This document shows, one piece after another, positions 3,487 through 26,253 of a DNA stretch of 64,000 nucleotides. The position numbers were made by a program, and so were the translations under genes. This stretch comes from a virus (lineage: Duplodnaviria > Caudoviricetes), in the IMG/VR virus record IMGVR_UViG_3300033121_001571. One strand, written 5' to 3'. Position 1 is the first letter of the stretch, and the number at the start of each line of letters is the position of its first letter. The notes below the pieces were generated by a model. The model did no database searches, was not told the DNA's origin, and worked only from the letters and a program-made list of their open reading frames with translations.

Positions 3487-4800
3487 TCAAAGAATATTCT
3501 GTGTGTCACCAAAAAAGTCTGGCAGTGCTGCGGAGGTTGTTGCTTCGTAAGAGCTGTGTTTTCTCACAGCATTTCGCAGATGCAAGTTATAACCGCAAGA
3601 CACTCGAGTGTCTTTTGAATAAAACTTGCAGTGTTCTATCAGAACAGAGGCAATGTCAGCTAAATTTGAAAGGTCTTTTTTGACAAGATAGGGATATTTT
3701 GTCTCTTTTGAAAGCATGCTGTACTCATTGACATCAACCCACAAAGGAAGACAACCAAGATCAATGCACTCTCTTGACGCTGTTCCACCAAAAGTGTCTT
3801 CTGTGTAAAGAGCTACAACTATGTCTGAGTTTCTAGCAATGAACTTGTATTCATCTCTAGAAAAAGCTCTATCAGTCAGTTTTAAGTAACCGTGTTTTCC
3901 ACACTCAGAGTGCAGTTCTTTGTTGCTGAATTTTTGGTTTGGATTTCCAGCAATCACAACAAAATCTTGTCTTCTTTTCCATAGCTCTGGAAGCACTTCA
4001 AACATGAATTTACCACAATTCGTGTAGTCGCTTGACCTTCCTTTTCCTCCGATTCTATTGGGAACAAACAACACAACTTTGTCTCTTGTTGCTTCGTGAA
4101 ATTCTTTTTCAACATCAAAAGATATCTCAGACAACAACGGTGCAGCGTTCGACTCAGTGACTGAGTACCCATCGTCCCAAGGTTTGCTCTTTGCGATTAT
4201 AGAATCAACAATTTCTTTTGTAAAGACTTTTCTAGCTTCAATCTCAAACTCTTTCAGAGCACTGTCGCACTGCCAAAAGTTGAAATCAGCTCGAATTGCT
4301 GCTTCACACTGTCCCAACCACAAAGAAGTTTCAGTCGGAAATTTTGGAACTGAAGGCACATCTACAAAGTGACTGTGAACAACAAATCTTGGTGACTGCT
4401 TGTTGAGATAGAACAGTGTCTTATAATTTCGAAATTGCATCGGATCGTTGATATAGACTATGTCATATCTCTTTTCACTCAAAGAGAGAGCACTTTGAAG
4501 TTTAGAAAACTGGAAATCGTATCTAGTGACTAGAGCATTTGGGATAACAGGTACAGCAACGTAGTTGAGTCTTGTCCCTTCCCACTTTTCCCACAGATCT
4601 GGATTGATATCTCTGTAATTTGTGAGACACTGAGTGTCAGGACCCATTATGTCTATGACTGTGTCTCTTGTAAGATTCAAGATCTCTCTTGCTCTGTTGA
4701 TCATCATCTGCCAACCAGAGTCAGTCTCTAACATAAAAACACCGTCAGTCGTGTAAGATGATAGCTGCGTCTGAATCAAGATTCTTTTCATTGTTAACAC
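3487..4800 (-). CDS. Putative GT-B glycosyltransferase
   Basis: 437 aa; C-terminal FVPNRI...IARNSDIVVALYTEDTFGGTASRECIDLGCLP resembles the GT-B donor-binding motif; next to the epimerase. Confidence 0.65.
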   Translation of the reverse strand: MLTMKRILIQTQLSSYTTDGVFMLETDSGWQMMINRAREILNLTRDTVIDIMGPDTQCLTNYRDINPDLWEKWEGTRLNYVAVPVIPNALVTRYDFQFSKLQSALSLSEKRYDIVYINDPMQFRNYKTLFYLNKQSPRFVVHSHFVDVPSVPKFPTETSLWLGQCEAAIRADFNFWQCDSALKEFEIEARKVFTKEIVDSIIAKSKPWDDGYSVTESNAAPLLSEISFDVEKEFHEATRDKVVLFVPNRIGGKGRSSDYTNCGKFMFEVLPELWKRRQDFVVIAGNPNQKFSNKELHSECGKHGYLKLTDRAFSRDEYKFIARNSDIVVALYTEDTFGGTASRECIDLGCLPLWVDVNEYSMLSKETKYPYLVKKDLSNLADIASVLIEHCKFYSKDTRVSCGYNLHLRNAVRKHSSYEATTSAALPDFFGDTQNIL

Positions 4801-5716: not shown

Positions 5717-6175
5717 TTATTGCGTCACACAACGAGCACAACTACACTTTTCTCGAAAACCACAATTGAAACACTGTGAACAACACGCATGGTCATGCAA
5801 GATCAGATCTTTACCATGACACGAGCAATCACACTCTTCTTTGTCTAGGTGATTACAGTTAATTTCATTAGTTATTTTTGCGTTAGCAATCTTATTTTTA
5901 GACGCTAAAATTTGTTCTGAACGTTCTTGATCTTCACGTCTTAGTTCTAATATTTCACGCAACAGATCGTCTATTCCTGGTCGTATGCACGCAATAGTTT
6001 TTGATATGAAATCTGGACTATTGACTGCGTTCTCAAGGTCATCATTATCCATATCAAGCCAAAATCCCCGGTGGTGTGCGTCTTCATCTATACCTGATCT
6101 GATCAGATCAAGAATAGCCATTCCCAATATGACATCAAACTCAACTTGAGTTTCACCTAAAAAGTACTTTTTCAT
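5717..6175 (-). CDS. Hypothetical protein with Cys/His-rich C-terminus
   Basis: ORF ending CDCSCH...HDHACCSQCFNCGFREKCSCARC. Confidence 0.6.
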   Translation of the reverse strand: MKKYFLGETQVEFDVILGMAILDLIRSGIDEDAHHRGFWLDMDNDDLENAVNSPDFISKTIACIRPGIDDLLREILELRREDQERSEQILASKNKIANAKITNEINCNHLDKEECDCSCHGKDLILHDHACCSQCFNCGFREKCSCARCVTQ

Positions 6176-6528
6176 GTTTTCTGTGCCTTAACTTTTTCGT
6201 TCCGAAGCGCATCCTCGAGCGTCTTTGGCTGCGGGAGCTTGTGTACCATCGCGTAAAGGGCCTCTGTCGCGATTCCAACGCCAGTCGGCCATTCGACCGC
6301 GCCGTGGTCGACATAGGCCTCCGCGAACGCCGAGCGCTTCTGGATGCGGTCGAACGGCGGTTTGAGGACGAGCTTTGTGAAGTCAGCAGTCCCGCTTGTC
6401 CCATCGGAGAACGTCACGTTCAGCTGGAGCGCTCCGGGAACTACTGTCACACTCTCCACCTTGATCGTCGGTAGCTTTCTCACGGGTTGAGCCTTTGAAC
6501 CTTTCTCTATAGTCATTGTGGTGTTCAT
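6172..6528 (-). CDS. DUF2442-like protein, locally GC-rich
   Basis: L.VTFSDGTSGTADF...F..AYVDHGAVEWPTGVGIATEALY matches the DUF2442 pattern as I recall it; start uncertain (6516 or 6528). Confidence 0.7.
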   Translation of the reverse strand: MNTTMTIEKGSKAQPVRKLPTIKVESVTVVPGALQLNVTFSDGTSGTADFTKLVLKPPFDRIQKRSAFAEAYVDHGAVEWPTGVGIATEALYAMVHKLPQPKTLEDALRNEKVKAQKT

Positions 6529-6847
6529 CACAGTGTGCCTTCGCCTGGTCGAAGACGCTACCAAAGAGGTACCTCAACACGCCATCCCTATTAACCTCTT
6601 CTCTAAACTTCTCGACCATGTAATTCACCCATTCCTCACGGTCATACGGTTGGTCAACAACATTTCCAGACTCGTCCCACGAAATGCCATCAAAGACATT
6701 TGAACCTGGGCCGACCAACTTCATCTTACACGCCCCAGACTTAAAGATGATGTGTCCACCCGTTGAGTCTTCGAAACCTGGAACACATTTCTTTCGACCA
6801 TCAAGCATTGCAAACTCAAGAGAAATTCTAAATGTACTACGACTCAT
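6383..6847 (-). CDS. Hypothetical protein; 3' end runs into the DUF2442 gene
   Basis: ORF follows the kinase stop directly; C-terminal ~45 codons overlap the DUF2442 gene in another frame. Confidence 0.5.
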   Translation of the reverse strand: MSRSTFRISLEFAMLDGRKKCVPGFEDSTGGHIIFKSGACKMKLVGPGSNVFDGISWDESGNVVDQPYDREEWVNYMVEKFREEVNRDGVLRYLFGSVFDQAKAHCDEHHNDYRERFKGSTREKATDDQGGECDSSSRSAPAERDVLRWDKRDC

Positions 6848-6850
6848 TTA

Positions 6851-7486
6851 TCACCTCATCACGAAGTCAATGACGTCAAAGACTTCACGTTCAAGATTCT
6901 CATCGTCAACATTTAGACTCAGAAGACGACATTTTGTCCAAGATGCAAATTCTTTGTAGACATCGTGAAGCTTAGCAAGAACTAGTTCAGTGATGCTAGA
7001 ATCAAGGTTGTCTTTGATGTCTTTGTAACTAGATCGGTGACAGAAGACAATGACAGCACCCAAAGCAGCATACGCTTCATCGATGTGTTTCAACATCGTG
7101 AGATCTGTCTCACGACTGAAGACCTTTGAGTATGCATACTCACAAGGAAAACCTCGATCAAAGACAACACTGTGACCAGTCTGTCGTAGGATATCAAGAA
7201 CTCTTGGATCAGCAAAACGAAGTTGATTTAAGAACTGATCGTTCTTTGAAACTCTAGAAGAGAGAAATGACGTGTGTTCTGACGTTGCTTTGAAATAGGG
7301 CACTCTCAACTTTCTAGAGACTTCTTTTGCTATCTCTGTTTTACCACACATATCTGGACCAACGAAGAACACCAACTTTTGGTTGTTGATTGTAATATTT
7401 TTGTGAGAAGTGTGTTCTGGAAACGAAGTAAAACAATCAAGACATAAATCTCTATCTAAATTTAGGTTTAGGTGTTTACAATACAC
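6851..7486 (-). CDS. Deoxynucleoside monophosphate kinase
   Basis: GPDMCGKT P-loop; VVFDRGFPCEYAY (DR motif). Confidence 0.8.
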   Translation of the reverse strand: MYCKHLNLNLDRDLCLDCFTSFPEHTSHKNITINNQKLVFFVGPDMCGKTEIAKEVSRKLRVPYFKATSEHTSFLSSRVSKNDQFLNQLRFADPRVLDILRQTGHSVVFDRGFPCEYAYSKVFSRETDLTMLKHIDEAYAALGAVIVFCHRSSYKDIKDNLDSSITELVLAKLHDVYKEFASWTKCRLLSLNVDDENLEREVFDVIDFVMR

Positions 7487-9303: not shown

Positions 9304-10305
9304 TTAATCTCTATAAGAATTTTTACTTTGAGCTCTTTTTGCTGCATCATTAGCAGCTTCTTCCGCTAACTTAGTGCCCCACTCTTCTTGGATACTGTCT
9401 CCAAGAACTTGCCCTTCATCAGTAAGGAAAATAAAATCACCTTCTCTGTAAACAAGACCAGAGTCAATAGCCTTTATCATCATATTGGTAAAATCCAAAA
9501 ATGCATTATGTTTAATTGTTTCGTGTTTTTCAATTTCTCTTACTTGAAGATATAGTTCTTCTTCATTATCAACGCCGTTAACGGACATCAGATATGGTAT
9601 GATCTTTTCATAGCGACTTTGTAAGTTAAGAACTTCTTCCATTGTCTGTGCAATTAAACGACCTTCATCATTTAAATCATAAATAGTGTGTTTTCCTTTT
9701 CTACCAACTGGCTCTATGTATGGTTCAAGAAATCCATACCATAATTCAGTATCACGCATCTTAAAACCAAAATGATGAAATCCATTAAATTCTTTTTCTT
9801 TTTTATACACTTCAGGTAGAGTCATGGGTCCAAATTGACTAATTATGTATAAAGGTATTTGTTCTATACTAGAATGTGTATTTACAGTCTTGGGTGTTGG
9901 CGGTTTGTTAGTTCCAATTTTTCTGATGCTAGCAAGATCGATCAGATGTCCCTTAGCAGACATACGTTCTGTTCTAAGAAATTTTTCATAATCACGCTGG
10001 TTACAACTAATATTGTTTACAATCTGCCACATAATTGAATGGTTTTTACTTTGATCTATGACTTTAACAAACTGCATTTCAACTTTACCAAACAATGTCG
10101 ATCTAGTGTTGTGTATATCTACATTCTGAATGGAGTATATAAAATCTTGCTCTATGATAAATGGCCCTTTGTTTGCATATTCTGGTGTATTTACAATGAC
10201 AACATCATAATTTTTGATGTCAGACAACGATTTATAAGATGTCTCTTGCGATTTTTCAAACGCTTCTGAGATTAGCTTCCTGATCTGACCAATTGTAGTG
10301 ATCAT
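9304..10305 (-). CDS. Hypothetical protein, paralog of 10312-11307, with winged-helix-like C-terminal repeats
   Basis: Leader MITTIGQIRKLISEA; shared GPMT, PVG.K, YDLN and LTDEGQVLGD segments. Confidence 0.8.
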   Translation of the reverse strand: MITTIGQIRKLISEAFEKSQETSYKSLSDIKNYDVVIVNTPEYANKGPFIIEQDFIYSIQNVDIHNTRSTLFGKVEMQFVKVIDQSKNHSIMWQIVNNISCNQRDYEKFLRTERMSAKGHLIDLASIRKIGTNKPPTPKTVNTHSSIEQIPLYIISQFGPMTLPEVYKKEKEFNGFHHFGFKMRDTELWYGFLEPYIEPVGRKGKHTIYDLNDEGRLIAQTMEEVLNLQSRYEKIIPYLMSVNGVDNEEELYLQVREIEKHETIKHNAFLDFTNMMIKAIDSGLVYREGDFIFLTDEGQVLGDSIQEEWGTKLAEEAANDAAKRAQSKNSYRD

Positions 10306-10311
10306 TTGTTG

Positions 10312-11307
10312 TTAAATACCCTTTGCTGTCTGTGCTAGAACGTATCCCCACAACTCCTGCGCTTTATCTCCAAGAACTTGTCCTTCATCAGTCAAGTGAT
10401 AGACTTCATCTTCATCTTCATATATGAGACCAGATTTTATAGCTTTACTGATAGCTTTGTTTAGAGACACTATGTTGAATTTTCTAAATGCAATAAATCT
10501 AGCTTGAGTATCTAATAGATCAACTTTCATTGGACCGTTGACAGACAACAAGTAAGGAATTATCAATGAAGCTCTCTCTTCAACAGACAGAGCGGTAGAG
10601 ATTGAGTTATTAGAATTTATTGGTGAAGAGTTCAGATCGTAAACAACTTCTCCGTCTTTTTTACCAACTGGTTGAAGAACATCAGTAACATACTGAAGAT
10701 TTTCATGTCGATCACCAAACCACACGTCAATAAATCCTTCATCATAAGCAGAATACTTGCCTTCAAATTCTTGAACTTTTTCCATGATCTCTCTTGCAGT
10801 CATAGGTCCATTTTGTTTGACAACATACGATATAATGTCCAACATATGACCATCAAAACTTAACTTTTGTGTTCTTGTCTCTTGGTTTCCAACCTTGATC
10901 ACATCTGATATGTCAAAAAAAGCGGACACAGTTTCTGACTCTGACGAAAACAGATCATCATACAACTCTCCAGCGCTAACGTTTTCACAAACATAACAGC
11001 GTCTGATCCTACCATTTTTGATGTTTTTTATCTGCAGCGTAAAACACTTAACTACAGGTTGTTTGCGTTGTGACTTGTTTTTGAAAACAAAATAAGAAGG
11101 TTGGTCGCCATCAGTTTCTATGTCAAGAAACACTTTACGTGATGTGTTGACAACAAACACATCATCTTTGTCAATATTGAGTCTTGTTTGTTTGAACTTG
11201 ATAAGATCTCCGTTCTTAATGTCAAACACAGATCTGTATGTTGTTTCACTCTGGTTACTCAAAGCCTCAGAAATCAATTTTCTTAATTGACCAAGAGAAG
11301 TTATCAC
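10312..11307 (-). CDS. Hypothetical protein, paralog of 9304-10305
   Basis: Leader MITSLGQLRKLISEA; shared C-terminal motifs. Confidence 0.8.
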   Translation of the reverse strand: MITSLGQLRKLISEALSNQSETTYRSVFDIKNGDLIKFKQTRLNIDKDDVFVVNTSRKVFLDIETDGDQPSYFVFKNKSQRKQPVVKCFTLQIKNIKNGRIRRCYVCENVSAGELYDDLFSSESETVSAFFDISDVIKVGNQETRTQKLSFDGHMLDIISYVVKQNGPMTAREIMEKVQEFEGKYSAYDEGFIDVWFGDRHENLQYVTDVLQPVGKKDGEVVYDLNSSPINSNNSISTALSVEERASLIIPYLLSVNGPMKVDLLDTQARFIAFRKFNIVSLNKAISKAIKSGLIYEDEDEVYHLTDEGQVLGDKAQELWGYVLAQTAKGI

Positions 11308-11338
11308 TGGACTAAATAGTCACTGAACCAGTGTCAGA

Positions 11339-11635
11339 TCACAGTATTTCTCCCCAATCACAGTCTTCATCAGGATCAACACCAATCTCATCCCACGAAG
11401 CCCACGTTGTTCCGTCGTGCATCACTTCATTCAAGTGCGTTGGTTGCAAGTTCTTCTGAAGTGCTAGATCAAATGGAATGTGAACAATCACCGTCTTGTC
11501 GGTGTCACTCATCCTCGTGACAAAACACTTTGGGATCCACACGGTGTCTTTCTTAGACACAGATATCTTGACAGCACGCTCAGATTCACGCACCAAAGTT
11601 CCCTTGAACTCGTGAAAACTGTCACTTCTTCTCAT
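11339..11635 (-). CDS. Hypothetical protein
   Basis: 98-aa ORF with ESERAV...VWIPK motif. Confidence 0.65.
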   Translation of the reverse strand: MRRSDSFHEFKGTLVRESERAVKISVSKKDTVWIPKCFVTRMSDTDKTVIVHIPFDLALQKNLQPTHLNEVMHDGTTWASWDEIGVDPDEDCDWGEIL

Positions 11636-11849
11636 CAGTGCCTATCGCTTCGATCACAAGCTGTTGTATCTTTAGAGAACGTTCTGAGTCGATTCCAAAG
11701 ATCTTCTCAGTTTCTTTCAAAGAAGCAGGTTTATTGATAACAACTTTCACACAGTTCTTAATATGTCTTGCTAAACTATCAACTTTGCTAAAACACTTGT
11801 GACACCTGTTGCACTCGAAACTGCTTGACACAACTGACTTCTTTCTCAC
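11622..11849 (-). CDS. Small C2H2/C2HC zinc-finger protein
   Basis: FECNRCHKCFSKVDSLARHIKNC. Confidence 0.6.
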   Translation of the reverse strand: MRKKSVVSSSFECNRCHKCFSKVDSLARHIKNCVKVVINKPASLKETEKIFGIDSERSLKIQQLVIEAIGTDEKK

Positions 11850-12607
11850 GTAGTTTTGATCACACTCTCTCTTGGTTTCATAAGATTGTAGAGAACTTGT
11901 TCTACGTGTTTGAACAAATCCCTGTCAAATCCACACTCTCCTTGAAAGACTCTCAACGCAGAATCAATGTTTAAAGCACGGTGAGTCTTCGGTTGCAAAC
12001 TTCGAAAACGGATGATGCTGTTCAGACAGTGCCTTGCTAAGTCTGGATCATGGGACCTTTCAATCTCTCTGCAGGCACGTTGTGCAAAAAACTCTATCTG
12101 TTGATTGTGTTCAGGTAAAAAACTCATATTTTTGCACCTTGTGATACAGTTCAACGCTTCTTCTCGCACCACTTCTACGTCTGAAGCGAGCGCGCTCACA
12201 AAAAACTCTCCAACAGCTACTTCAAAAAACGGAAGAACATCGATAAACGGATCTAGATTTCCGCAACACATGACATTTAATTGAACACCGTAATCAATTG
12301 GTGTGGGAGACGCAAACAAGAACAAAAAACTATTTTGATCAACTTTAACGTATTGATACATTGTAAACGCTAGATACGACAGCAAACCTATGTCTTTCCA
12401 ACCTGTTTTCACTAAGTGACTAAAGATAACGTAAGGCCACTCATCAAGTCTACGATTTTTACCAACAAAACACTTTAGTGCTTCTGTTGATCTGTTCTGA
12501 TTTGAAAGGTGCTCTGACCACTCTTTGCAGAGCTTATTGTATGTTTTTTCGCTGAAGATCATTGTTGAGTTAAGCAGAGATCTAAGTTGTCTGAAGACAT
12601 ACACCAA
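11846..12607 (-). CDS. Hypothetical helical protein
   Basis: ORF; likely start MIFSEK (~12562). Confidence 0.65.
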   Translation of the reverse strand: MVYVFRQLRSLLNSTMIFSEKTYNKLCKEWSEHLSNQNRSTEALKCFVGKNRRLDEWPYVIFSHLVKTGWKDIGLLSYLAFTMYQYVKVDQNSFLFLFASPTPIDYGVQLNVMCCGNLDPFIDVLPFFEVAVGEFFVSALASDVEVVREEALNCITRCKNMSFLPEHNQQIEFFAQRACREIERSHDPDLARHCLNSIIRFRSLQPKTHRALNIDSALRVFQGECGFDRDLFKHVEQVLYNLMKPRESVIKTT

Positions 12608-13701
12608 TCACTACAATAGTTATTTCCTTCACCACACGCAATAAAAGTACCTGGAATGACTTTTGAACAGTATGAATTTCCTAACTTAAACACACCAGGA
12701 CTTGGATTTTTCAAAATCTTGAACAGATTGTATATTACACGATCACTGAACTTACCTCCTTCTTTGTATGAGAATTGATCGTATGATATACGAATAAGGG
12801 TCCATCCGTGTTGCACTATGTGTTCATCAAGCAATCGATCCATATTCCTAACATCATTAAAAACTTTTTCTCCTTTTATGCGAGGTTCAAAATGAATTAT
12901 ACCATCAAATTCAACATAAATACGTGCTGTTTTATCAGCAATATCAACTTGTTTTCGATGTGATTTATTTGTAAATACACTTGATTTAACAATCTGATTA
13001 TGTTTGAATTCATAAGGACTAGCGGTTAACAACAACTCAAATAACATTAACTCTGGTTTACTGTGCCATTTAGAATGTGCGGCGAGGGTGCATTTTTCAT
13101 AGAACTCATCAAAATGAGTATTACGCCAAGCTGTCAGACGTGCTGTTCGAATTGCAAGGATCTCTGGTCGAGCTGACGTTTTTTTTGCAGTGATGCGTGA
13201 TAGTTCGCGGCCCCTTGGAGACGAATTTCTTGATGCCATAGCTTCAGCTCGGCGTTTACGTTCATTTGGATTCGCCATAACAGCAGTAGAAACTGCAACA
13301 CTCATCTTAGCCTTATATGCAGTCAAATCGTCGCCACGTTCTTTTGCACGCTTCAACCATGCAAAATTCTGACCACGTTTCTTAAACGCAAGCTGTGTAG
13401 TAAGCGAAGTGAGCTCAGCGTCTGGATATGTAGTTATGTACTCCTTCTTGCTCATGTCATGGACTTGTGTCAAGTGTTTTGTAAGAGTACGACCTATAAA
13501 TCCGCAAATTCGACAAGTAACTGTGTCGTTGGCTGAAAGAACAGTTACTAGACACGCTTTTACGTGTTTTTCGTAGGGTCGCTGGTAAGAAAAGTTCTTA
13601 CCGCATCGGTCACAACGATATTGTATCCCTTTTCGTTGATCATCCACAATGGTAGCATCTCTCCCGTTTCCTTCGTCCTGAATTTGTGATTCCACGTGCA
13701 C
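12559..13701 (-). CDS. Putative homing endonuclease (Zn fingers plus DUF559/Vsr-like PD-(D/E)xK domain), directly after IntN3
   Basis: YRCDRCGKNF...HVKAC and CRICG...KHLTQVH; SKPE...QVDIA...VEFDGIIHF...GWTLIRI. Confidence 0.8.
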   Translation of the reverse strand: MHVESQIQDEGNGRDATIVDDQRKGIQYRCDRCGKNFSYQRPYEKHVKACLVTVLSANDTVTCRICGFIGRTLTKHLTQVHDMSKKEYITTYPDAELTSLTTQLAFKKRGQNFAWLKRAKERGDDLTAYKAKMSVAVSTAVMANPNERKRRAEAMASRNSSPRGRELSRITAKKTSARPEILAIRTARLTAWRNTHFDEFYEKCTLAAHSKWHSKPELMLFELLLTASPYEFKHNQIVKSSVFTNKSHRKQVDIADKTARIYVEFDGIIHFEPRIKGEKVFNDVRNMDRLLDEHIVQHGWTLIRISYDQFSYKEGGKFSDRVIYNLFKILKNPSPGVFKLGNSYCSKVIPGTFIACGEGNNYCSDWCMSSDNLDLCLTQQ

Positions 13702-13910
13702 TTTACCTTTTCTCCAGTAGTGAGCTCTACTTCAACTAAGTCGAGAACACCGTGATCATGTTTCATGATCACGGGAATAATAATGTCATTTCCTGAAATC
13801 TCGTCTCTAGATCTGACTAGATCATTAGGGCAAACATCTTTTAACAACTTAGTCTCTCTGTAAGAGCCATCAAAATTATATATATTCAGAGGTTGTAAAA
13901 AGTACAAACT
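13560..13910 (-). other. Split intein 3, N-terminal part (IntN3, Ser1)
   Basis: Starts at SLYFL right after DnaE FNK; block B CTWNH; ORF ends with no IntC. Confidence 0.87.
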
Positions 13911-14282
13911 TTTATTGAAACCGTACCCAGCGAAATATAAGATCTTATCGTAAAGGTTGTTAGCAACATCAGCAGTGTAACCGTTCTTTATGCATCCTTG
14001 AACAAAGCTATCTCGCGTTTCTTGTGCAGCCTTCTTCGCCGCTTCACCGCCCGAGATGCTGCGCTTCATGATGGCGCGGCGAACCTCGTCACACTTGTCC
14101 TTCGGGAAGCCGGCCACCTTCTCGGCCAGTTCCATCACCTGCTCCTGAAAAATTATACAGTTGTGCACCAGAAGGCCATTTGCGAAGAAATTGTGGTTCT
14201 TCTTGACCTGGATGTCGTACACGGGCTGTGCAGGAGCACGCTTGATTGCACGGATCTTGATGGGAACTACATCAGGCATCAT
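13560..14282 (-). CDS. dnaE: DnaE fragment D: IntC2 + 83-aa extein + IntN3
   Basis: PVYDIQV..NHNFFANGLLVHN|CIIFQEQVMELA...FAGYGFNK|SLYFLQ...VELTTGEKVKCTWNHKF. Confidence 0.92.
   Translation of the reverse strand: MMPDVVPIKIRAIKRAPAQPVYDIQVKKNHNFFANGLLVHNCIIFQEQVMELAEKVAGFPKDKCDEVRRAIMKRSISGGEAAKKAAQETRDSFVQGCIKNGYTADVANNLYDKILYFAGYGFNKSLYFLQPLNIYNFDGSYRETKLLKDVCPNDLVRSRDEISGNDIIIPVIMKHDHGVLDLVEVELTTGEKVKCTWNHKFRTKETGEMLPLWMINEKGYNIVVTDAVRTFLTSDPTKNT
13999..14030. repeat. 32-bp direct repeat, copy 1 (copy 2 at 15429-15460)
   Basis: tgaacaaagctatctcgcgtttcttgtgcagc is identical at both sites. Confidence 0.95.
14160..14282 (-). other. Split intein 2, C-terminal part (IntC2)
   Basis: VYDIQV..NHNFFANGLLVHN followed by Cys+1. 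Confidence 0.92.
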
Positions 14283-14754
14283 CCACCTCGACAATATCGA
14301 ACTCATCGAAGCAACACACTTCTTGGTCGAGCTCGCCGCCTTTCAAACCCTCGAAAAGACCCGAACCCGTGCTACGATTGTAGAACATCGCATCATTGTT
14401 ACGATAATCGTCAATGAGTTTGACTTCAGTCCCAGCGTCGAACCATTCATCGGGACGAGAGATGTATTTGACACGCTTAACTGGTTGGAGAGGTGTAGAT
14501 GAAAAGAAGCCTTCCGCCCCATCACGCATCATCTTGACGTGGACAATTCTCTCGTTAAGATGATCTGCTTGCAGGCGTTCACCTTCGTCAACTAGCCTGA
14601 TCACATTGGGACATGCAGTCGTCTTCTCTACCCATAGTGGGTCAAGAGGCGACGGATGGTGTGGACACGCACGCCAGTCGTGTTGACGTTGACGCTCGAG
14701 CAGGCAAAACACACCCGTCAAGTGCGTGTAACAAACAACGTAATCCCTCATCAT
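14272..14754 (-). CDS. Hypothetical protein inside the insert
   Basis: 160-aa ORF overlapping both neighbours in operon-like fashion. Confidence 0.55.
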   Translation of the reverse strand: MMRDYVVCYTHLTGVFCLLERQRQHDWRACPHHPSPLDPLWVEKTTACPNVIRLVDEGERLQADHLNERIVHVKMMRDGAEGFFSSTPLQPVKRVKYISRPDEWFDAGTEVKLIDDYRNNDAMFYNRSTGSGLFEGLKGGELDQEVCCFDEFDIVEVDDA

Positions 14755-15179
14755 TCACACTCCTGTTCGCGATGCATTAAGCACGCAGCACATATATCGC
14801 GGCCAGGTGTTGACGTCCAAAATTGCTCGTGGCAATCAACACACGTTTGCGTTGGGCTGATGGACAACTTCGTTGCTACGCCGTGTGATGACATAGAACG
14901 AGACAACGCATCAGCGTCCAGCACAACGCGACGTGGGTTGATTTTCATTGCCAACGAACTTGCACATAGTTGACACACCGGTCCATGGACGTCCAACACA
15001 CGAGGACCATGATACTCAAGTTCCATATCGTTGCCCACTTCTTCATGGGCTCGAAACGTATCGAACCAATCGGCATAGGTGAGGTCCTCACGCTTAGCCA
15101 CTTCAGGATGTGACTTCAAGGTATTGATGAAATTCTTGAACGAGGTGAGCAGCTCTTCCTCGAAATCTTCGATCTTCAT
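14751..15179 (-). CDS. Hypothetical Cys-rich protein inside the insert
   Basis: CQLC, CVDC and CAAC motifs. Confidence 0.55.
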   Translation of the reverse strand: MKIEDFEEELLTSFKNFINTLKSHPEVAKREDLTYADWFDTFRAHEEVGNDMELEYHGPRVLDVHGPVCQLCASSLAMKINPRRVVLDADALSRSMSSHGVATKLSISPTQTCVDCHEQFWTSTPGRDICAACLMHREQECE

Positions 15180-15181
15180 GC

Positions 15182-15712
15182 CTAAATTGTCCTCAAGTTG
15201 TGTGGGTAGTTCACAGCCTCAGACCCCCAGACGCGTCTCACCACATAACCTCGAGCCTCAGCCGCGCGGGTGAATGATTCATCGAGTCGATACTGTCGCT
15301 TCATCTTGGACGTCAGTTCGTGCTTTTCTGGATTGCCGTGCCAGTAGTCGCCATCGAACTCTACGAGAATGTTCTCATTTGGAACGTAGAAATCGAACTC
15401 ATGGTTGATGCCTTCAACGTGGCATCTGTGAACAAAGCTATCTCGCGTTTCTTGTGCAGCTTTCTTTGCAGCCTCGCCGCCAGAGATGCTTCGTTTCATG
15501 ATAGCTCTGCGAACTTCGTCACACTTATCTTTTGGAAAACCCGCAACTTTTTCTGCGAGTTCCATTACGCTTTCTTGAAATATCAAACAATTATGAACTA
15601 AAATAGAATTTGCAAAAAAATTACCATTCTTCTTGATTTGAAGATCGTAAACGGGTTGTGAAGGAACACGTTTGACCGCACGGATTTTGACGGGAACTAC
15701 GTTAGACATCAC
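15182..15712 (-). CDS. Alternative fragment D': IntC2' + ~53 aa DnaE fused to a DUF559/Vsr-like nuclease domain
   Basis: VYDLQI..NGNFFANSILVHN|CLIFQESVMEL...RDSFV, then HEFDFYVPNENILVEFDGDYWHGNP...GYVVRRVWGSE. Confidence 0.85.
   Translation of the reverse strand: MMSNVVPVKIRAVKRVPSQPVYDLQIKKNGNFFANSILVHNCLIFQESVMELAEKVAGFPKDKCDEVRRAIMKRSISGGEAAKKAAQETRDSFVHRCHVEGINHEFDFYVPNENILVEFDGDYWHGNPEKHELTSKMKRQYRLDESFTRAAEARGYVVRRVWGSEAVNYPHNLRTI
15429..15460. repeat. 32-bp direct repeat, copy 2
   Basis: Identical to 13999-14030; marks the DnaE/nuclease fusion point. Confidence 0.95.
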
Positions 15713-15972
15713 TTGCCTTGTTGATCTGAAACTTTGATCTGAAACTCTTCGACGTTTGACTCATCTGCGCTATCTTCAACACAAAGCACTCGAAGATAAC
15801 GAATTGCACACGCTAAGAACTGTTCAGGAACCAAATTTGGTGTTTCGTGTTTTGGTACTATCTCTCTTGGAGAAAAAGTCTCTTCCACAGAGTCACACCA
15901 ATGTAAGATACCAGTTAGAGTGTTTGTTTTTACCATAAACACAAAACTACTGCACAGATACTTTCTGTTCAC
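15709..15972 (-). CDS. Hypothetical protein
   Basis: 87-aa ORF coupled to the D' start. Confidence 0.5.
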   Translation of the reverse strand: MNRKYLCSSFVFMVKTNTLTGILHWCDSVEETFSPREIVPKHETPNLVPEQFLACAIRYLRVLCVEDSADESNVEEFQIKVSDQQGK

Positions 15973-15997
15973 TTAAGTTTTAAGATCTAAACAGAGA

Positions 15998-16525
15998 TCA
16001 CAGATCAATAATGATATATTTGTCATTTCTTTTCATGACATTATCGCTAGATATGTCCCCACGCATTTTCACATAGATTCTCAAAAAATCTTTGAGATCA
16101 GAATCGGGCAGAGACTCTACGCTTTCTGGGTTGCTAACAACTTCATCTATGATGAATTTTTCATCTCTTGTCAGTTGATCTAACTTTTCCATCACAGCAT
16201 ACACTGCATAAACAATGTTATCACCCACTTCTTCATCATATCCTTTTAACTTGCCCACTTCAAAAATTTTCACAAATAGTTCAAAATCAGGAATAGACTT
16301 TAGTTTATTCAAATGATAATCAACGCCATCGCTGTCTGGAAACATCTCATATGTTGGCACAAGTTTTATCACTTTTCCTGCTGAATATTCCATGATAACT
16401 CCTTCGTTACCAAACGCAACCACGTTTCCAACGTTTGGAGGGAGGATTCCGTCTCTTTTAAGTTTAGGAATGATTGTTTCAATAAAGTATGAATCGTAAA
16501 AACCTTGGTTTCTTTTTGTAAACAT
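15998..16525 (-). CDS. Minimal protein-kinase-like protein
   Basis: FGNEGVI (G-loop), VIKL, VMEKL hinge, GDISSDNVM catalytic loop, IIIDL. Confidence 0.7.
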   Translation of the reverse strand: MFTKRNQGFYDSYFIETIIPKLKRDGILPPNVGNVVAFGNEGVIMEYSAGKVIKLVPTYEMFPDSDGVDYHLNKLKSIPDFELFVKIFEVGKLKGYDEEVGDNIVYAVYAVMEKLDQLTRDEKFIIDEVVSNPESVESLPDSDLKDFLRIYVKMRGDISSDNVMKRNDKYIIIDL

Positions 16526-16528
16526 CTT

Positions 16529-17413
16529 TTATCTGTTCCAATCTGATCTGTCTTTGATGTGTGCTTCAATCACAATGACTTTTCCCCTGATAGCATCTTC
16601 AAAATCTTTTCTTGCAGTTGAGACAATATTTTTTACATTAGAAAGAAGCTCATCTAACTTGGGATCACCCGTTTCATTATAGTGAAATCCTCGAGTGTCA
16701 AGAATAGCCTGAGTAACGATTTCTGATATTACGTCTACCCAGTTGTAATTTCTAAACGCATTAGTAACAGCTGATTTCATTGTCAGCGCAGACACAATTT
16801 TTGGCCAAAAATAAAATTTGAAATAATCGTTCATATATTCGTTTTTTTCATTTTTGAAAGCATCAATGAACATTTTGTTGATAACTTTCATATACTTTCC
16901 CATTACAGAAATATTTGAAGTTTCATCGATCATAGCGTGTATAATCATCCAAGGTGTAGAAAGAAATCCCTTTTGAAGATGTTCAACTAGTGGAACAAGG
17001 ATCGCAGCACCTTGTTTTCTTGCTTCTTCTAATTGAAGAATTCTGTTTGATGGAACTCCAAATCTAGCTAAAATACTAGCATCACTATATCTTTCACGCG
17101 TTCTATCAGATGTTCTTCCCCTGTTTGATGCCCACCATGTAAATGCTGGTACTACGTAGATTGGAACTGACAGGTTCTTGTATAATTTAATCGCACTGTT
17201 GTAAAAGTTTTTGTTGTCAAAAAATTTCTTGACTTCTTTTCTATCTTTTTCGACGTCAGCATCACTTGAATGATTCTTAGTTTGTAAGACATAGTCTGAT
17301 TTTGCATTAACAGTCCAATCTTCTTCTCCAGCTGGCTCAATTCCAGCTAAAGGAGCTTCTGAGATCACTGAAGATCTGATAAGAGATCGGAGTTCGCTAA
17401 GTTTGATTTTCAC
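16529..17413 (-). CDS. Hypothetical protein, paralog 1 (MKIKLSELRSLI leader)
   Basis: Extensive identity with 18110-18997; GTG at 17413 chosen from TATTTA spacing (ORF track start 17419). Confidence 0.85.
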   Translation of the reverse strand: MKIKLSELRSLIRSSVISEAPLAGIEPAGEEDWTVNAKSDYVLQTKNHSSDADVEKDRKEVKKFFDNKNFYNSAIKLYKNLSVPIYVVPAFTWWASNRGRTSDRTRERYSDASILARFGVPSNRILQLEEARKQGAAILVPLVEHLQKGFLSTPWMIIHAMIDETSNISVMGKYMKVINKMFIDAFKNEKNEYMNDYFKFYFWPKIVSALTMKSAVTNAFRNYNWVDVISEIVTQAILDTRGFHYNETGDPKLDELLSNVKNIVSTARKDFEDAIRGKVIVIEAHIKDRSDWNR

Positions 17414-17432
17414 AATCACTAAATATCAACAC
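17312..17432. repeat. 121-bp exact direct repeat, copy 1 (copy 2 at 18896-19016)
   Basis: Base-by-base comparison; covers the promoter motif, the paralog 5' end and the last codons of IntN2. Confidence 0.93.
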
Positions 17433-17711
17433 TTCATCACTGTCTGTCAAAGACCCAGCGTTTACCCACCCACGGTTCTTTGTCATGACTAAGTGGTCTT
17501 CAGTGACAGTGAGTCGTTTTCCGTCCTCTAACTCTATCTCGATCACGTCTCTTACACCGTTCGACACAGCAGCTACAACCACGTCACTCTCTATTTCAGC
17601 AGATTCCTCGTTGTATGACGGGAGAGTGACGCCGACCATCTGCTTATCAACGATTTCCTTGATAGTGATCTCACCGTTGTCTGTCATCACTCTTGAGTCA
17701 CCAGTTAAGCA
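17397..17711 (-). other. Split intein 2, N-terminal part (IntN2)
   Basis: Block A CLTGDSRV; block B TEDH. Confidence 0.93.
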
Positions 17712-18074
17712 ACTGTAAGTCTTCTCAAGAATCTTATTGATTCTATCGTCACCCCAGTCCATCTGCTTGTTGTTATTCTTAGCGTCAATATACAACTTGT
17801 CTACGTCAGCAGCAAGTGGGCCAGGACGATAGATCGAAGTCAGAGTCGCAATGTCAATGATGTTCTCTGGTTTTGCTTTGACAAACAGGCGCTGAGCGCC
17901 CTTGCCAGTGACTTGAAATATGCCAGCAAACTTTGCTTCTTCATAGACCTTATAGACTTCTGGATCTTCCAGATCCATCTTTGATGGATGCATGTGTTCG
18001 CTGTGCCACTCTTTGATCTCATCAAAAGAGATCTTATCATTTGCAACGTTGTTGACTGACTTTACTTTTGCCAC
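17397..18074 (-). CDS. dnaE: DnaE fragment C: short IntC-like strand + extein + IntN2
   Basis: GIFQ...TSIYRPGPL...KILEKTYS|CLTGDSRV...IELEDGKRLTVTEDHLVMT. Confidence 0.92.
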   Translation of the reverse strand: MAKVKSVNNVANDKISFDEIKEWHSEHMHPSKMDLEDPEVYKVYEEAKFAGIFQVTGKGAQRLFVKAKPENIIDIATLTSIYRPGPLAADVDKLYIDAKNNNKQMDWGDDRINKILEKTYSCLTGDSRVMTDNGEITIKEIVDKQMVGVTLPSYNEESAEIESDVVVAAVSNGVRDVIEIELEDGKRLTVTEDHLVMTKNRGWVNAGSLTDSDEVLIFSDCENQT

Positions 18075-18109
18075 AGCGACAGTCTACTGACTGAGCTAAT
18101 TCTTTACAC

Positions 18110-18997
18110 TTAGCCTTGAATATGAGCTTCAATCACAATGACTTTTCCTCTGATAGCATCTTCAAAATCTTTTCTTGCAGTTGAGACAAGATCACTTATC
18201 TTTGCTAAGAGACTATCGATCTCTTGATCACCAGTCTTGTTGTAATGAAATCCTCGAGTGTCAAGAATAGCTTGCGTAAGAATTTCAGCTGCAATATCAT
18301 ACAACGAACGACCCTTAAACTTATAAACTCTAGCTGATTTCATCGTCAGTGAAGAAATAACACCTGGAAGCAGGTGGTTAAAATACCTTTCTTGTTTCTT
18401 GCTCTTAATTTGACCGTCAAAATCTTCGCCTTCTAAAAATAGATAAACGATCTCACTTACATACTTTCCCATGACAGACGACTCTGTCGATTCATCGATC
18501 ATAGCGTGGATGATCATCCAGGGCGTAGAAAGAAATCCTTTCTCAAGATTCTCAACTAGTGGAACAAAGATCGCTGCGCCTTGTTTTCTTGCTTCTTCTA
18601 AAGCTACGATCTTTTCTGGAGGTACACCAAACCCAGCTAAAATACTAGCATCTTCACTTCTTTCATAAGTTCTCTTAATGCGTCCTCTATCATCAAATTT
18701 AGATCCTCGTCCTGCAGCAAACCATGTAAATGCTGGCACTACGTAGATTGGAACCGACAGGTTCTTATACAACTTAATCGCGCTGCTACGAAAATTTTCA
18801 TTGTTAAAGAATTTTTTGACTTCTTCTCTATCTTTTTGAACAGTTGGCACATCATAATTTTTGAATCGAGCAATAGTCTTAGAGTCCATACCTTTAGTCC
18901 AATCTTCTTCTCCAGCTGGCTCAATTCCAGCTAAAGGAGCTTCTGAGATCACTGAAGATCTGATAAGAGATCGGAGTTCGCTAAGTTTGATTTTCAC
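18110..18997 (-). CDS. Hypothetical protein, paralog 2
   Basis: Paralog of 16529-17413; near-identical ends, divergent middle. Confidence 0.85.
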   Translation of the reverse strand: MKIKLSELRSLIRSSVISEAPLAGIEPAGEEDWTKGMDSKTIARFKNYDVPTVQKDREEVKKFFNNENFRSSAIKLYKNLSVPIYVVPAFTWFAAGRGSKFDDRGRIKRTYERSEDASILAGFGVPPEKIVALEEARKQGAAIFVPLVENLEKGFLSTPWMIIHAMIDESTESSVMGKYVSEIVYLFLEGEDFDGQIKSKKQERYFNHLLPGVISSLTMKSARVYKFKGRSLYDIAAEILTQAILDTRGFHYNKTGDQEIDSLLAKISDLVSTARKDFEDAIRGKVIVIEAHIQG

Positions 18998-19016
18998 AAT
19001 CACTAAATATCAACAC
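18896..19016. repeat. 121-bp exact direct repeat, copy 2
   Basis: Identical to 17312-17432 (offset 1584). Confidence 0.93.
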
Positions 19017-19040
19017 CAGCTTACAACGCGTACGCGTCGG

Positions 19041-19340
19041 TCACCAGTAACATGTACAGAACAAAGTGTTAACTCCTTCAATGTCTTTTTTTGAAAAAGA
19101 GTTATGGTGTAAAAAACTAACGAGTATATTTTTCTCTATGTCAAACACAAATTTCAATGTACTTTTTATTGGGTATGCAAAAAGGTTCGGAAATTTAGAA
19201 TTAAGTTCTCCCACGTACAAACCGAATATCTTTTCATTTTTGTCTAATAAAAGAGGTCTGTTGAAATTTGTTCTATGATAATAGACTCTTCCACAAGGAA
19301 GCACTCGAACAAGATTTCCAACTAAAAACTCATTTTTCAT
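19041..19340 (-). CDS. Small PH...CxC family protein (array member 6, C-terminally short)
   Basis: VRVLPCG...GLYV...VFDI...CTCYW*. Confidence 0.6.
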   Translation of the reverse strand: MKNEFLVGNLVRVLPCGRVYYHRTNFNRPLLLDKNEKIFGLYVGELNSKFPNLFAYPIKSTLKFVFDIEKNILVSFLHHNSFSKKDIEGVNTLFCTCYW

Positions 19341-19349
19341 TTAGGAACT

Positions 19350-19700
19350 TTAAGTTTTCTTAGTAGAGTTATGGTGTGTTACGTAACAACTCATACAACA
19401 ACAATGAAGTGCGCTATAACATAGTTCATCACTGCACTGTATAAAATCAGATGTCACAAATTTGACAAGTTTTTTACTTAACAGATCAAACAAAATAACA
19501 CTAACAAAATTCACTGGTCTGTTAAACTTATAACTGTTTATATCTTTTCTGTGAAGATCTGTCACTGAGATCAAATAACCATCAAGATCTTGGTGATCAA
19601 GACTTGTGTCTTCTTCCTCTTTACAGATAGCGTTAACAGCACCGTGAGCAATTATTTTCACAACGGTGTTTTCTAAGCTCTTAGTTAGTATCATCTTCAT
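19350..19700 (-). CDS. Small PH...CxCxxC family protein (array member 5)
   Basis: KIIAHG...GYLISV...LFDL...CCCMSC. Confidence 0.65.
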   Translation of the reverse strand: MKMILTKSLENTVVKIIAHGAVNAICKEEEDTSLDHQDLDGYLISVTDLHRKDINSYKFNRPVNFVSVILFDLLSKKLVKFVTSDFIQCSDELCYSALHCCCMSCYVTHHNSTKKT

Positions 19701-24738: not shown

Positions 24739-26253
24739 CCTATGAACAGAGAGAAATCTGCTAAACGGTAGGTCCCACTTGATTGGATCTAAGTCTGTGA
24801 TCTCTAAAACATAGTTAACAAGTGAACCCGCACCAGAGCCTCTACCAGGACCAACTAGAGTGACGCTTCTAGCAAGTTCCATGATCTTCTGATAAGAGAT
24901 GAAATAATCTGAGTTTTTCATCTGCTTGATGACAGACAACTCTTCTTTAAGTCTCTCTACGTACTCTTCTTTCTCTGCAAGGCCCTTCTTGATCATGCCT
25001 TCTTTGCACAGTTTACACAAGTGACTGAAAGACGAAGAGTCTTCTGGGACAAGTCTTTTGACAGGGAACTTTGGCGTCCTATCAGGTTCAACAACGCCAA
25101 TCACTTGGTGAGCAATGTCGTGTGTTCTCTCAATCGCTGCAGCGATAACTTCGTCATCATAGAACGAAGTGCCCTCTTTAGAACGCAAGTACTCATCCCA
25201 CATCTGAGAAGCGTTCTTTGGATACAATTCACACTTCAAATCATCTTTAGACTTCGGAAGAGAGTCAGGTGAGTATGTCTTGTAGTTCATAAACCCAAGC
25301 TTCTTGTATAACTCTCTTTCTTTCCAGACGTTTGGATTATAGTAGTGAGCATCACCAGTGACCACAAGTTGATCTGTGACACCGTTTCTCTTGGCAAATT
25401 CTAGTATTGATCTGTTTATCAGATTCTGAGCAAGAATTCTGTTAAATTGCAGTTCAAGATAACAGTTGCCCTTTCCAACAATATCTGTCATCAGATCATA
25501 GAAGTTTCCAACTGCTGTAACACACTTCTCCATAAGAGACGGATCGTCCAACAACGACTGGTCCATAGAATCAAACTTGATCTTCTGAAGTTCTTGAAAC
25601 ACGTTATAACTTGGAAGTCCACCCAAGCAAGCAGAGGTGACAATGATGTCACCATCTTTTGCAGCCTCACGAAGGATGCGAGAATCAATTCTGGGGAACC
25701 TATAAAAACCCTTTAAGTAGCCTAAAGCTACTGCCTGAAACATTTTCTGGAGCCCACGTGATGACTTTGGCAGTACCACCAGGTGATGGCGGCGGTTGAT
25801 TGGGTTGAAGTGCTTTGTCGTCTTTGTCTCTTCTTCATCTTCAATAGTCAAAGCATTTGAAACTTCAATGTCTTCAGTCTCATCATTTTGATCAACAACA
25901 GCAATGAGCTTCGTCTGAAGCTCTTCTTGTTTTTTCAGCAGTTTTGCTGCTGTTTTTTTCTCTGTTGCCGCTAGATCGTGTTCCTCTTTGTCTCTCTGCC
26001 ACTGTTGTAGATCAGGGTGAAAATATGCTTCTACGCCTGGGATATACTTGAAGTTTTCCCCCGCCGATTTCCACTTTTCAACAAATAATTGAGCGTGAGC
26101 ATAAGAGTTGCAGTGACCGTGCTCAGTGATTGCGTGTGCGTCTAGACCGTTTTCTTTGCAAAACTTGAAGTGTTCGTCTGGGTATCCCAAACCATCAAAT
26201 GCAGAAAACCCTGTGTGGGCGTGAAGTCCAACGAATTTCTTGGGAAATGGCAC
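24433..26253 (-). CDS. dnaE: DnaE fragment A: PHP domain + N-terminal polymerase region + IntN1
   Basis: FVGLHAHTGFSAFDG, ITEHG, GVEAY, SACLGG, TGDAHY, GPGRGSGAGSLV, FSRFLSVHR|CLEPNT; GTG start at 26253 assumed (ORF track 26307). Confidence 0.95.
   Translation of the reverse strand: MPFPKKFVGLHAHTGFSAFDGLGYPDEHFKFCKENGLDAHAITEHGHCNSYAHAQLFVEKWKSAGENFKYIPGVEAYFHPDLQQWQRDKEEHDLAATEKKTAAKLLKKQEELQTKLIAVVDQNDETEDIEVSNALTIEDEEETKTTKHFNPINRRHHLVVLPKSSRGLQKMFQAVALGYLKGFYRFPRIDSRILREAAKDGDIIVTSACLGGLPSYNVFQELQKIKFDSMDQSLLDDPSLMEKCVTAVGNFYDLMTDIVGKGNCYLELQFNRILAQNLINRSILEFAKRNGVTDQLVVTGDAHYYNPNVWKERELYKKLGFMNYKTYSPDSLPKSKDDLKCELYPKNASQMWDEYLRSKEGTSFYDDEVIAAAIERTHDIAHQVIGVVEPDRTPKFPVKRLVPEDSSSFSHLCKLCKEGMIKKGLAEKEEYVERLKEELSVIKQMKNSDYFISYQKIMELARSVTLVGPGRGSGAGSLVNYVLEITDLDPIKWDLPFSRFLSVHRCLEPNTRVLLEKNKTTSLDEIKVGDKVLTQDGSLQRVTYKTVQHVTKTYLIKVNGTTFKCSENHEWLVCAGDGKFIKKRTHELTTDDLLYTYHYDHSKENL

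Follow-up and report, generated by a model that had tools for sequence, protein, structure and literature searches.

We analysed a window of 64 kb, that is, the whole stretch of 64,000 nucleotides (nt) taken from IMG/VR virus record IMGVR_UViG_3300033121_001571 (Duplodnaviria; Caudoviricetes), in which a gene joining the C-terminal half of a split intein (IntC) to a piece of dnaE is present twice. Gene D (13560..14282, minus strand) is the sole full-length copy, and gene D' (15182..15712, minus strand; 175 amino acids (aa)) is a truncated one. A foreign block of 1398 bp, rich in guanine and cytosine (GC), occupies 14031..15428 on the minus strand and holds the 3' third of an endonuclease gene, two small open reading frames (ORFs; orf142 and orf160), a foreign IntC and 43 foreign dnaE codons. 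The block has one homeologous and one microhomology joint, it is accompanied by a duplicated resident 32-mer, and its endonuclease end is fused in frame to D'. We consider it probable that the block was copied from a GC-richer relative into the resident IntC-dnaE gene through an illegitimate joint on one side and a homeologous joint on the other, and that D and D' are the result.

Composition of the block and its repeat

The two copies of the 32-mer, both on the minus strand and of resident type, lie at 13999..14030 in D (codons AAQETRDSFV plus CA) and at 15429..15460, the end of the resident part of D'. They are exactly identical and belong to the only four exact repeats of at least 25 nt in the window. 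The 32-mer is the terminal part of a direct repeat of 290 nt that is 77% identical and has a spacing of 1430 nt; in the 252 nt upstream of it, the copies are 74% identical and their longest identical run is 11 nt. When diverged codons were resampled, an identical run of at least 32 nt appeared in 0.16% of trials, or in 0.07% with extein codons only.

In 200-nt windows over 13900–15499, GC content was 0.47–0.55, compared with 0.31–0.45 in most flanking windows, and the block itself ranged from 0.48 to 0.55. The kilobase 14001–15000 (GC 0.515) ranked first among 64 one-kb windows, most of which lay at 0.33–0.44. These values agree with an earlier description made from the letters of this DNA (the sequence-only reading), which had noted the exact 32-bp repeat with GC-richer DNA between its copies. 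At third codon positions, GC content (GC3) was 0.72–0.73 in the 5' part of D (14031–14282) and 0.34–0.35 in the homologous codons of D'; it was 0.52 in both orf160 and orf142 and 0.61 in the endonuclease remnant, against a mean of 0.358 (standard deviation 0.084) for the 54 minus-strand ORFs of at least 120 aa. Across the repeat in D, GC3 in 30-codon windows dropped from 0.67–0.83 to 0.30–0.43, and across the repeat in D' it climbed from 0.17–0.43 to 0.53–0.67. Sliding GC and GC3, which the sequence-only reading had proposed as a check, therefore revealed a step between ~0.7 and ~0.35 in GC3 at both repeats.

Alignment of 93 codons of D and D' gave 40 identical codons, 40 synonymous differences and 13 non-synonymous ones, and 32 of the 38 synonymous third-position differences had G or C in D and A or T in D'. 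This fits the earlier proposal that the 5' part of D is a GC3-rich synonymous version of D'. The same reading had composed the native gene from the 5' part of D' and the 3' part of D, and both composition and reading frame bear this out: the native form would run from 15712 to 15429 and continue from 13998 to 13560, with the interruption after codon 94. It is very improbable that the roles are reversed, with the GC-rich block native to the phage and the GC-poor D' brought in, or that a tandem duplication arose internally and diverged afterwards. Every full-length D in the database does carry an IntC of the GC-rich type, but D', the 32-mer and the 3' part of D use the codons of the genome, identity of the block to GC-rich phages reaches 100% in 60-nt windows and the block contains an endonuclease remnant; moreover, the one-directional bias of the third-position differences would not be expected from divergence in place within one genome.

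Donor-type relatives and the two joints

All four stretches in IMG/VR that matched orf160 encode a relative of it. In three of these stretches, L001, L002 and L003, the entire block is present with its gene order unchanged, and a full endonuclease gene lies upstream. L001 equals L002 in 10 shared proteins. L002 lies on a 150.8-kb contig and has a locus GC of ~0.52; that of L003 is 0.56. The gene order in L002 and L003 is a dnaE piece with the N-terminal intein half (IntN-dnaE), a zinc-finger endonuclease of 246 aa (276 aa from an upstream GTG), orf142, orf160 and IntC-dnaE. The sequence-only reading had attributed the segment to a related phage of higher GC and had called for a search for a donor with the full endonuclease upstream; L002 and L003 have both properties.

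The block aligned end to end with all three loci; the alignment starts in the final third of the endonuclease gene and extends as far as codon 84 of IntC-dnaE. Identity, given first for L001/L002 and then for L003, was 0.78 and 0.84 for the endonuclease remnant, 0.83 and 0.79 for orf142, 0.95 and 0.90 for orf160, 0.88 and 0.89 for IntC and 0.88 and 0.93 for the inserted extein; it was 0.69 to either for the 32-mer and 0.77 and 0.73 for the next 88 aligned nt. In 60-nt windows along the block, identity to L002 was 0.60–1.00: it was 0.60–0.93 over the endonuclease remnant and orf142 and 0.85–1.00 from ~14950 to 14031, with 0.97–1.00 over 14830–14530, and it fell sharply to 0.70–0.77 just beyond 14030. 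The donor GC3 over the homologous codons was 0.65 and 0.80, compared with 0.72 in D and 0.34 in D'. Phages in GenBank gave no match to 11000–19500 by megablast or to 14031–15428 by blastn, and the exact 32-mer is absent from IMG/VR.

At the homeologous joint in D, the last donor-type site is 14031 (donor G) and the first resident-type site is 14028 (resident T). L001, L002 and L003 each match the 32-mer at 22 of 32 positions, and because of the 10 mismatches in each of these donor loci, both copies of the 32-mer are assigned to resident DNA. At the illegitimate joint, resident dnaE reads TTTGTTCAAGG, the donor endonuclease genes read GTCGTTCACAAG and D' reads TTTGTTCACAG. Common to dnaE and the endonuclease genes at this point is the 5-nt microhomology GTTCA, placed at 15429..15433 (minus strand) by the alignment and the site table. 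Full-length endonucleases read ..GDNVVH(K/R).. at the joint; the full-length proteins closest to the remnant are P0055 (86%) and P0056 (84%), and ..VVHRYYVEG.. in P0056 resembles ..DSFVHRCHVEG.. in D'. The endonuclease-derived part of D' starts directly after GTTCA, since the full-length endonucleases align there. The block was thus found to be joined by homology at one end and by microhomology at the other, and by these alignments the 32-bp repeat is the resident stretch between the homeologous switch and the 5-nt microhomology joint.

Two other origins of this arrangement were considered and rejected. The 32-bp repeat does not represent a target-site duplication or an attachment site of a transposon or integrative element, because both copies are the resident stretch between the switch points. 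Nor is the block a discrete element with ends of its own, as its ends fall in the middle of the endonuclease gene and of dnaE, and the genes are contiguous in the donors. Searches of Pfam and PHROG found no recombinase, whether transposase or integrase, among the ORFs of the block. The sequence-only reading had held that recombination between the repeats would excise the insert and restore the gene; a 1430-bp deletion between them would indeed give an in-frame gene.

The intein site was examined in nine of the 46 loci returned for relatives. L012 and L019 have a split intein with a near-full endonuclease directly before IntC. L011, a 309-kb GC-rich relative, retains the last 69 endonuclease residues only (4225–4431), directly after IntN; orf160 is missing there and orf142 is disrupted, with part of it kept. 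L013, L014, L015, L016 and L018 have no intein at this site, and L017 begins inside the gene and is uninformative. Because L011–L019 differ in intein, endonuclease and cargo content, the space between the intein halves is, on this comparison, a variable cargo site. Such a site fits two published accounts, one of endonuclease islands without fixed borders (PMC10448857) and one of fractured genes (PMC2677866). A free-standing endonuclease gene between the intein halves is present in the donor loci L002, L003, L012 and L019; in the window it is reduced to its last 82 codons, which are fused to D'.

Population variants and the course of the event

Among the 23 runs listed, 20 contain part of 13700–15800 and three contain at least half of the sampled words; four were aligned to the window. 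The run contigs (Logan, k=31) break at the 32-bp repeat as expected, and in X20, the likely source run, they break inside both copies. In X2, which comes from another study, a 415-nt contig covers 15290–15704 with 0 differences and extends 139 and 244 nt beyond the illegitimate joint in the two directions. Since this contig spans the joint without differences, the joint between endonuclease and dnaE exists independently of the window. The joint at 13999–14030 is bridged by contigs of X2 (13670–14103) and X5 (12800–14849) in a sister allele, which differs at 14025, at 14028 and further into the block. A skip of 1430 nt is listed in none of the four runs, and k=31 contigs, which break at the repeat, are unable to show one.

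The fusion is also represented among database proteins. The D' cluster has four members; its 175-codon frame has stayed intact in three variants, which occur on no fewer than 12 contigs from two sources. The members are P0045 (that of the window), P0001 (4 contigs), P0043 (6 contigs; 4 changes, all of them within the endonuclease part) and the partial P0044 (1 contig). JGI labels this cluster as a very-short-patch-repair endonuclease. The D cluster has five members, of which three are full length, P0004 (that of the window), P0051 (8 contigs) and P0052 (6 contigs); all three begin with a donor-type IntC, and the two N-terminally cut members are uninformative. Among the 42 matches to residues 1–94 of D', a resident-type IntC occurred only in the D' fusion cluster, and the next best matches (83–87% identity) were of donor type. 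A further protein, P0003 (111 aa, on a 4237-bp contig), consists of an X5-type foreign IntC and extein as far as ...QETRDSFV, followed by an unrelated tail of 18 residues, and its point of departure from dnaE is the residue at which D' departs too. The tail is encoded neither in the window nor in L001–L007, and the contig is absent from IMG/VR.

In X20, the two insert contigs, on 14001–15458, had a word depth (one figure per contig) of 84.1, and the flanking contigs had 102.5 and 107.5; a minority of genomes without the insert, or GC bias only, could account for the difference. Donor-like contigs co-occur with the phage in X20 and X1, those in X20 at low depth (14.5 and 3.3). The lower depth of the insert and the breaks of the X20 contigs at both repeat copies would suit an assembly chimera of two strains at a shared 32-mer, the outcome that the sequence-only reading had named as fatal to it. 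We find such a chimera scarcely credible: both ends of the insert enter the same resident 32-mer, for which two linear strains would not suffice, and it is contradicted by the X2 contig across the illegitimate joint and by the occurrence of the fusion protein on a dozen or more contigs.

In the probable course of events, copying from a GC-richer relative, the intein site of the donor would have held a zinc-finger Vsr-like endonuclease and two small ORFs between the halves. Co-infection with this relative would have been followed by one-sided break repair or copy-choice replication, the initial break possibly having been made by the endonuclease of the relative. The copied block enters at GTTCA in the last third of the endonuclease gene (the illegitimate joint), passes through orf142, orf160 and the donor IntC, and returns to resident DNA within dnaE at 14031–14028 (the homeologous joint), and the 32 resident bases between the switch points are thereby present twice. 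One product is the chimeric full-length D, composed of foreign IntC, 43 foreign codons and a resident remainder, and the other is the truncated resident D', to which the nuclease core is fused in frame. The foreign IntC of D would now partner the resident IntN.

It is plausible that the donor endonuclease made the starting break, because the donor has the enzyme and the recipient is without it, and because P0003 leaves dnaE at the D' residue. The enzyme might also have had no part in the event, which would then be ordinary template switching or illegitimate recombination between co-infecting relatives, with the adjacency of the endonuclease incidental. Consistent with this, the resident allele already carried the split intein, so that a target spanning the uninterrupted site would be absent; the homeologous joint lies in the sole stretch of good homology, the dnaE finger extein (0.70–0.77); and the same region has a segment bounded by a 121-bp repeat without any endonuclease remnant. 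However, the block begins inside the endonuclease gene, the locus is variable in every relative examined, the departure of P0003 coincides with that of D', and published work locates nuclease genes at phage exchange boundaries (PMC10448857). We therefore regard an uninvolved endonuclease as unlikely.

The X5 contig (on 12800–16616) carries a sister allele of the same phage. Its GC-rich cassette differs from that of the window at 74 sites within 14025–14849, and 14850–15800, which in the window holds D', the endonuclease remnant and the end of orf87, is replaced by 357 letters; its flanks are identical to the window except at one site. This allele may be a deletion derivative or an independent replacement.

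Several observations weigh against the copying of the block in one event as set out above. If one break had been repaired by simple strand annealing, the 32-mer in D should be of donor type, whereas it is of resident type; the event would thus need another resident molecule, a further template switch or a donor that already had this 32-mer. The exact donor was not found, and a 29-mer beside the joint is absent from IMG/VR. An uninterrupted native allele was not seen among 42 protein matches (96–308 aa) and the 5 members of the D cluster, so that the polarity of the event rests on composition and relatives. The X5 allele, with a cassette that is 9% different and without D', leaves the order of events in the population ambiguous. 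In a comparison of target sites over 8 relatives, no telling pattern emerged and no cleavage site of the endonuclease was recognised.

Two steps are a possible, if rather unlikely, alternative: the whole cassette would first have been replaced, with a join at ~14030, and a later unequal illegitimate crossover at GTTCA with a still-native genome would have given D' and the 32-bp duplication. This order explains directly why both 32-mers are of resident type. Alleles with a foreign cassette but without D' do exist, the switch point of X5 lying 3–9 nt from that of the window, and the chimeric D proteins P0051 and P0052 occur on 14 contigs. Against it, two rare events are required, no full-endonuclease allele was seen in the GC-poor phage, and the 74 differing sites in the X5 cassette indicate that it is not the direct parent.

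Genes of the locus, intein compatibility and known systems

The protein of gene D (P0004) matches Intein_splicing (2.6e-12) and DNA_pol3_finger (8e-09) in Pfam. It comprises the foreign IntC (14282–14160), a dnaE finger piece, foreign to 14031 with resident sequence from 14030, and the next split intein's N-half. Comparison with L003, in which the gene is uninterrupted, and with the C-extein of L002 shows that this next intein begins with Ser after GYGFNK. D' matches DNA_pol3_finger (9.1e-07) in Pfam and intein_Cterm (7.6e-08) in NCBIfam; its Intein_splicing match (2.9e-06) falls below the cut-off of that family. It is made up of the resident IntC' (15712–15590), 53 resident dnaE codons and 82 in-frame endonuclease codons, and it terminates at the stop codon of the endonuclease gene itself; residues 97–168 match PHROG endonuclease families (3.1e-09 and 3.5e-07).

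This remnant of a Vsr-like homing endonuclease gene (15182..15428, minus strand) has kept the nuclease core and lost all zinc fingers. Residues 191–276 of the L002 endonuclease match 15442–15185 of the window at 78% (tblastn), and the match of the remnant to TIGR00632 Vsr (E 0.0013) is far below the cut-off. The full-length donor endonuclease has two C2H2 zinc fingers (Pfam 1.4e-11) and a C-terminal core, FDFYVP...VEFDGDYWHG, that is invariant in 8 of 8 aligned sequences. Putative homing endonucleases of the Vsr-like kind are described by Dassa et al. (2009; PMC2677866) as having motifs that match Asp51, Phe67, Trp68 and His69 of Vsr and an invariant Glu at the position of Phe62. The donor core has these family motifs, and in its E-x4-Y-W-H motif the spacing from Glu to His is 7, equal to that in the family description. 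Profile matches were all below cut-offs (TIGR00632, E 0.0013 and 0.0053; Pfam DUF559, 0.062). An AlphaFold2 model of the 96-aa nuclease domain from an 8-row alignment had a mean predicted local distance difference test (pLDDT) score of 43, too low for a fold search, and sequence searches of the PDB gave nothing below E 0.66 for the nuclease domain and eukaryotic zinc fingers only for the whole endonuclease.

The other ORFs of the block are orf142 (14751..15179, minus strand), a Cys-rich cargo ORF that travels with the endonuclease and has 87% aa identity to orf142 of L002, and the cargo ORF orf160 (14272..14754, minus strand), with 95% aa identity to L001/L002 and 89% to L003; neither has a family in Pfam or PHROG.

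The resident dnaE piece at 17397..18074 (minus strand) ends in IntN, which starts at CLTGD (Pfam DNA_pol3_finger 7.3e-24, Intein_splicing 3e-08) and is the N-half of the split intein whose C-half is duplicated in D and D'. This IntN-dnaE piece has 62% and 60% aa identity to its homologues in L002 and L003, and the intein junctions, Cys1 (CLTGD) and HN/C, are readable in the alignments. Between IntN and D' lie the resident genes orf296, orf175 and orf87 (15709..17419, minus strand; GC3 0.28–0.33), which have 0 families in Pfam and 0 in PHROG and no nuclease match; because none of them is recognisable as a homing endonuclease, the resident allele lacks one at this intein. In IMG/VR, orf175 is without a relative and the IntN piece has one 50% relative only; in JGI metagenome contigs, a 38-mer of the resident 3' part of D has no exact match and orf296 has two 29% matches only. 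The next split intein has a resident full-length endonuclease gene (12559..13701, minus strand; PHROG endonuclease family, 6.1e-08), a homologue of L002 7054–8091 with 52% aa identity to the 345-aa endonuclease of L002. Donor proteins located further dnaE pieces and endonuclease genes at 24837–22715 and 8942–7905 (tblastn). A conserved enzyme gene is thus split here by a split intein, with IntN on 17397–18074, IntC on D and D' and further dnaE pieces elsewhere, and as judged from these genes the dnaE of the window is a multi-piece fractured gene whose pieces are joined by split inteins.

Other features were seen in the window. An exact direct repeat of 121 bp (17312–17432 = 18896–19016; spacing 1584 nt) bounds the IntN-dnaE gene, and further repeats occur at 16587–16626 = 18150–18189 and 16683–16708 = 18246–18271. 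The 121-bp repeat contains the last 12 IntN codons and the start of the paralogous orf296 and orf297, which elsewhere have 37–90% identity (60-nt windows). Upstream of orf297 there is therefore a relic of the IntN tail, and the N-half gene of the same intein is likewise framed by a partial duplication. In 13563–13712, where the final 50 codons of D share DNA with the beginning of the next endonuclease gene, GC3 reaches 0.53–0.67 and identity to L002 is 0.73–0.82, compared with ~0.5 on either side; this may be a second small exchange patch or a conserved overlap. A second GC-rich island lies at 5900–7100 (GC 0.475 over 6001–7000), with minus-strand ORFs at 6172–6564 and 6383–6847 (GC3 0.68 and 0.49); it gave weak PHROG matches without function only and no DNA match in the records behind L002, L003 and L011. 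Between dnaE pieces lies a tandem pair of paralogous ORFs (9304–10305 and 10312–11307; 333 and 331 aa) whose N-termini are similar.

The IntC halves of D and D' differ at 11 of 40 residues, and all seven charged residues are conserved. The searches found the resident IntC on no full-length gene, and it is therefore apparently the foreign IntC that functions in this phage. Its cross-phage compatibility with the resident IntN is inferred from the conserved charged residues, from the presence of the foreign IntC in the sole complete gene and from the essential nature of DnaE. It is quite unlikely, though conceivable, that D' is functional as well, with IntC' trans-splicing with IntN to give a DnaE-linked nuclease core or a titration of IntN, and that the shared break at RDSFV is the endonuclease cleavage site.

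Both the fractured layout and the type of recombination are known already, and, to the extent of a full-text search, the chimeric split-intein gene with a retained decoy copy appears to be new. With the fractured genes of Dassa et al. (PMC2677866) the locus shares a phage dnaE split by inteins, and the donor loci share a Vsr-like endonuclease between the halves; the window site differs in having no working endonuclease, and instead has a foreign cassette, a truncated endonuclease, a duplicated C-half and a chimeric gene with an intein half of another lineage. In one-sided homing of T4, the side without homology is resolved at microhomologies by illegitimate break repair (Edgell, Gibb and Belfort 2010; PMC2988022). 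Shared with the window are one side with homology, one with microhomology and an ectopic joint beside a phage homing endonuclease gene; that system, however, was described in laboratory crosses with group I introns, whereas the window is natural, at a split-intein site, with a free-standing endonuclease and an arm identity of 70–77%. Trans homing and co-conversion by T4 mobE (PMC2790892) and homing endonuclease gene islands (Barth, Dunham and Seed 2023; PMC10448857) share with it an endonuclease that mobilises flanks and cargo in partial, polar and mosaic transfers. In contrast to these, the cargo in the window includes half of a splicing element that needs a partner encoded by the recipient, and the endonuclease itself was left truncated. 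L011 shares the decay of the endonuclease between the intein halves, but the remnant in the window is fused in frame to a duplicated resident IntC-dnaE fragment. In the full-text literature search, none of the listed titles dealt with an exchange of intein halves.

The locus constitutes a natural experiment on split-intein cross-reactivity, in which a C-half that differs at 11 of 40 residues, by inference, works with the N-half on a dnaE piece of ~60% identity. It indicates that phage lineages exchange partial cassettes made up of intein halves, endonuclease genes and small cargo ORFs, and that partial-cassette transfer can leave a competing decoy copy of an essential gene fragment. In the unlikely case that D' is expressed and functions, it would either deliver a nuclease by way of the intein or regulate how the polymerase is assembled; if the RDSFV break, 280 bp inside the C-extein, is a cleavage site, the locus would preserve a natural trace of one-sided homing in a fractured gene. 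The D' fusion is a trap for annotation, as a public source names it a Vsr repair endonuclease. The full-length endonucleases, together with the resident dnaE sequence, would offer a direct route to the target of a little-studied family.

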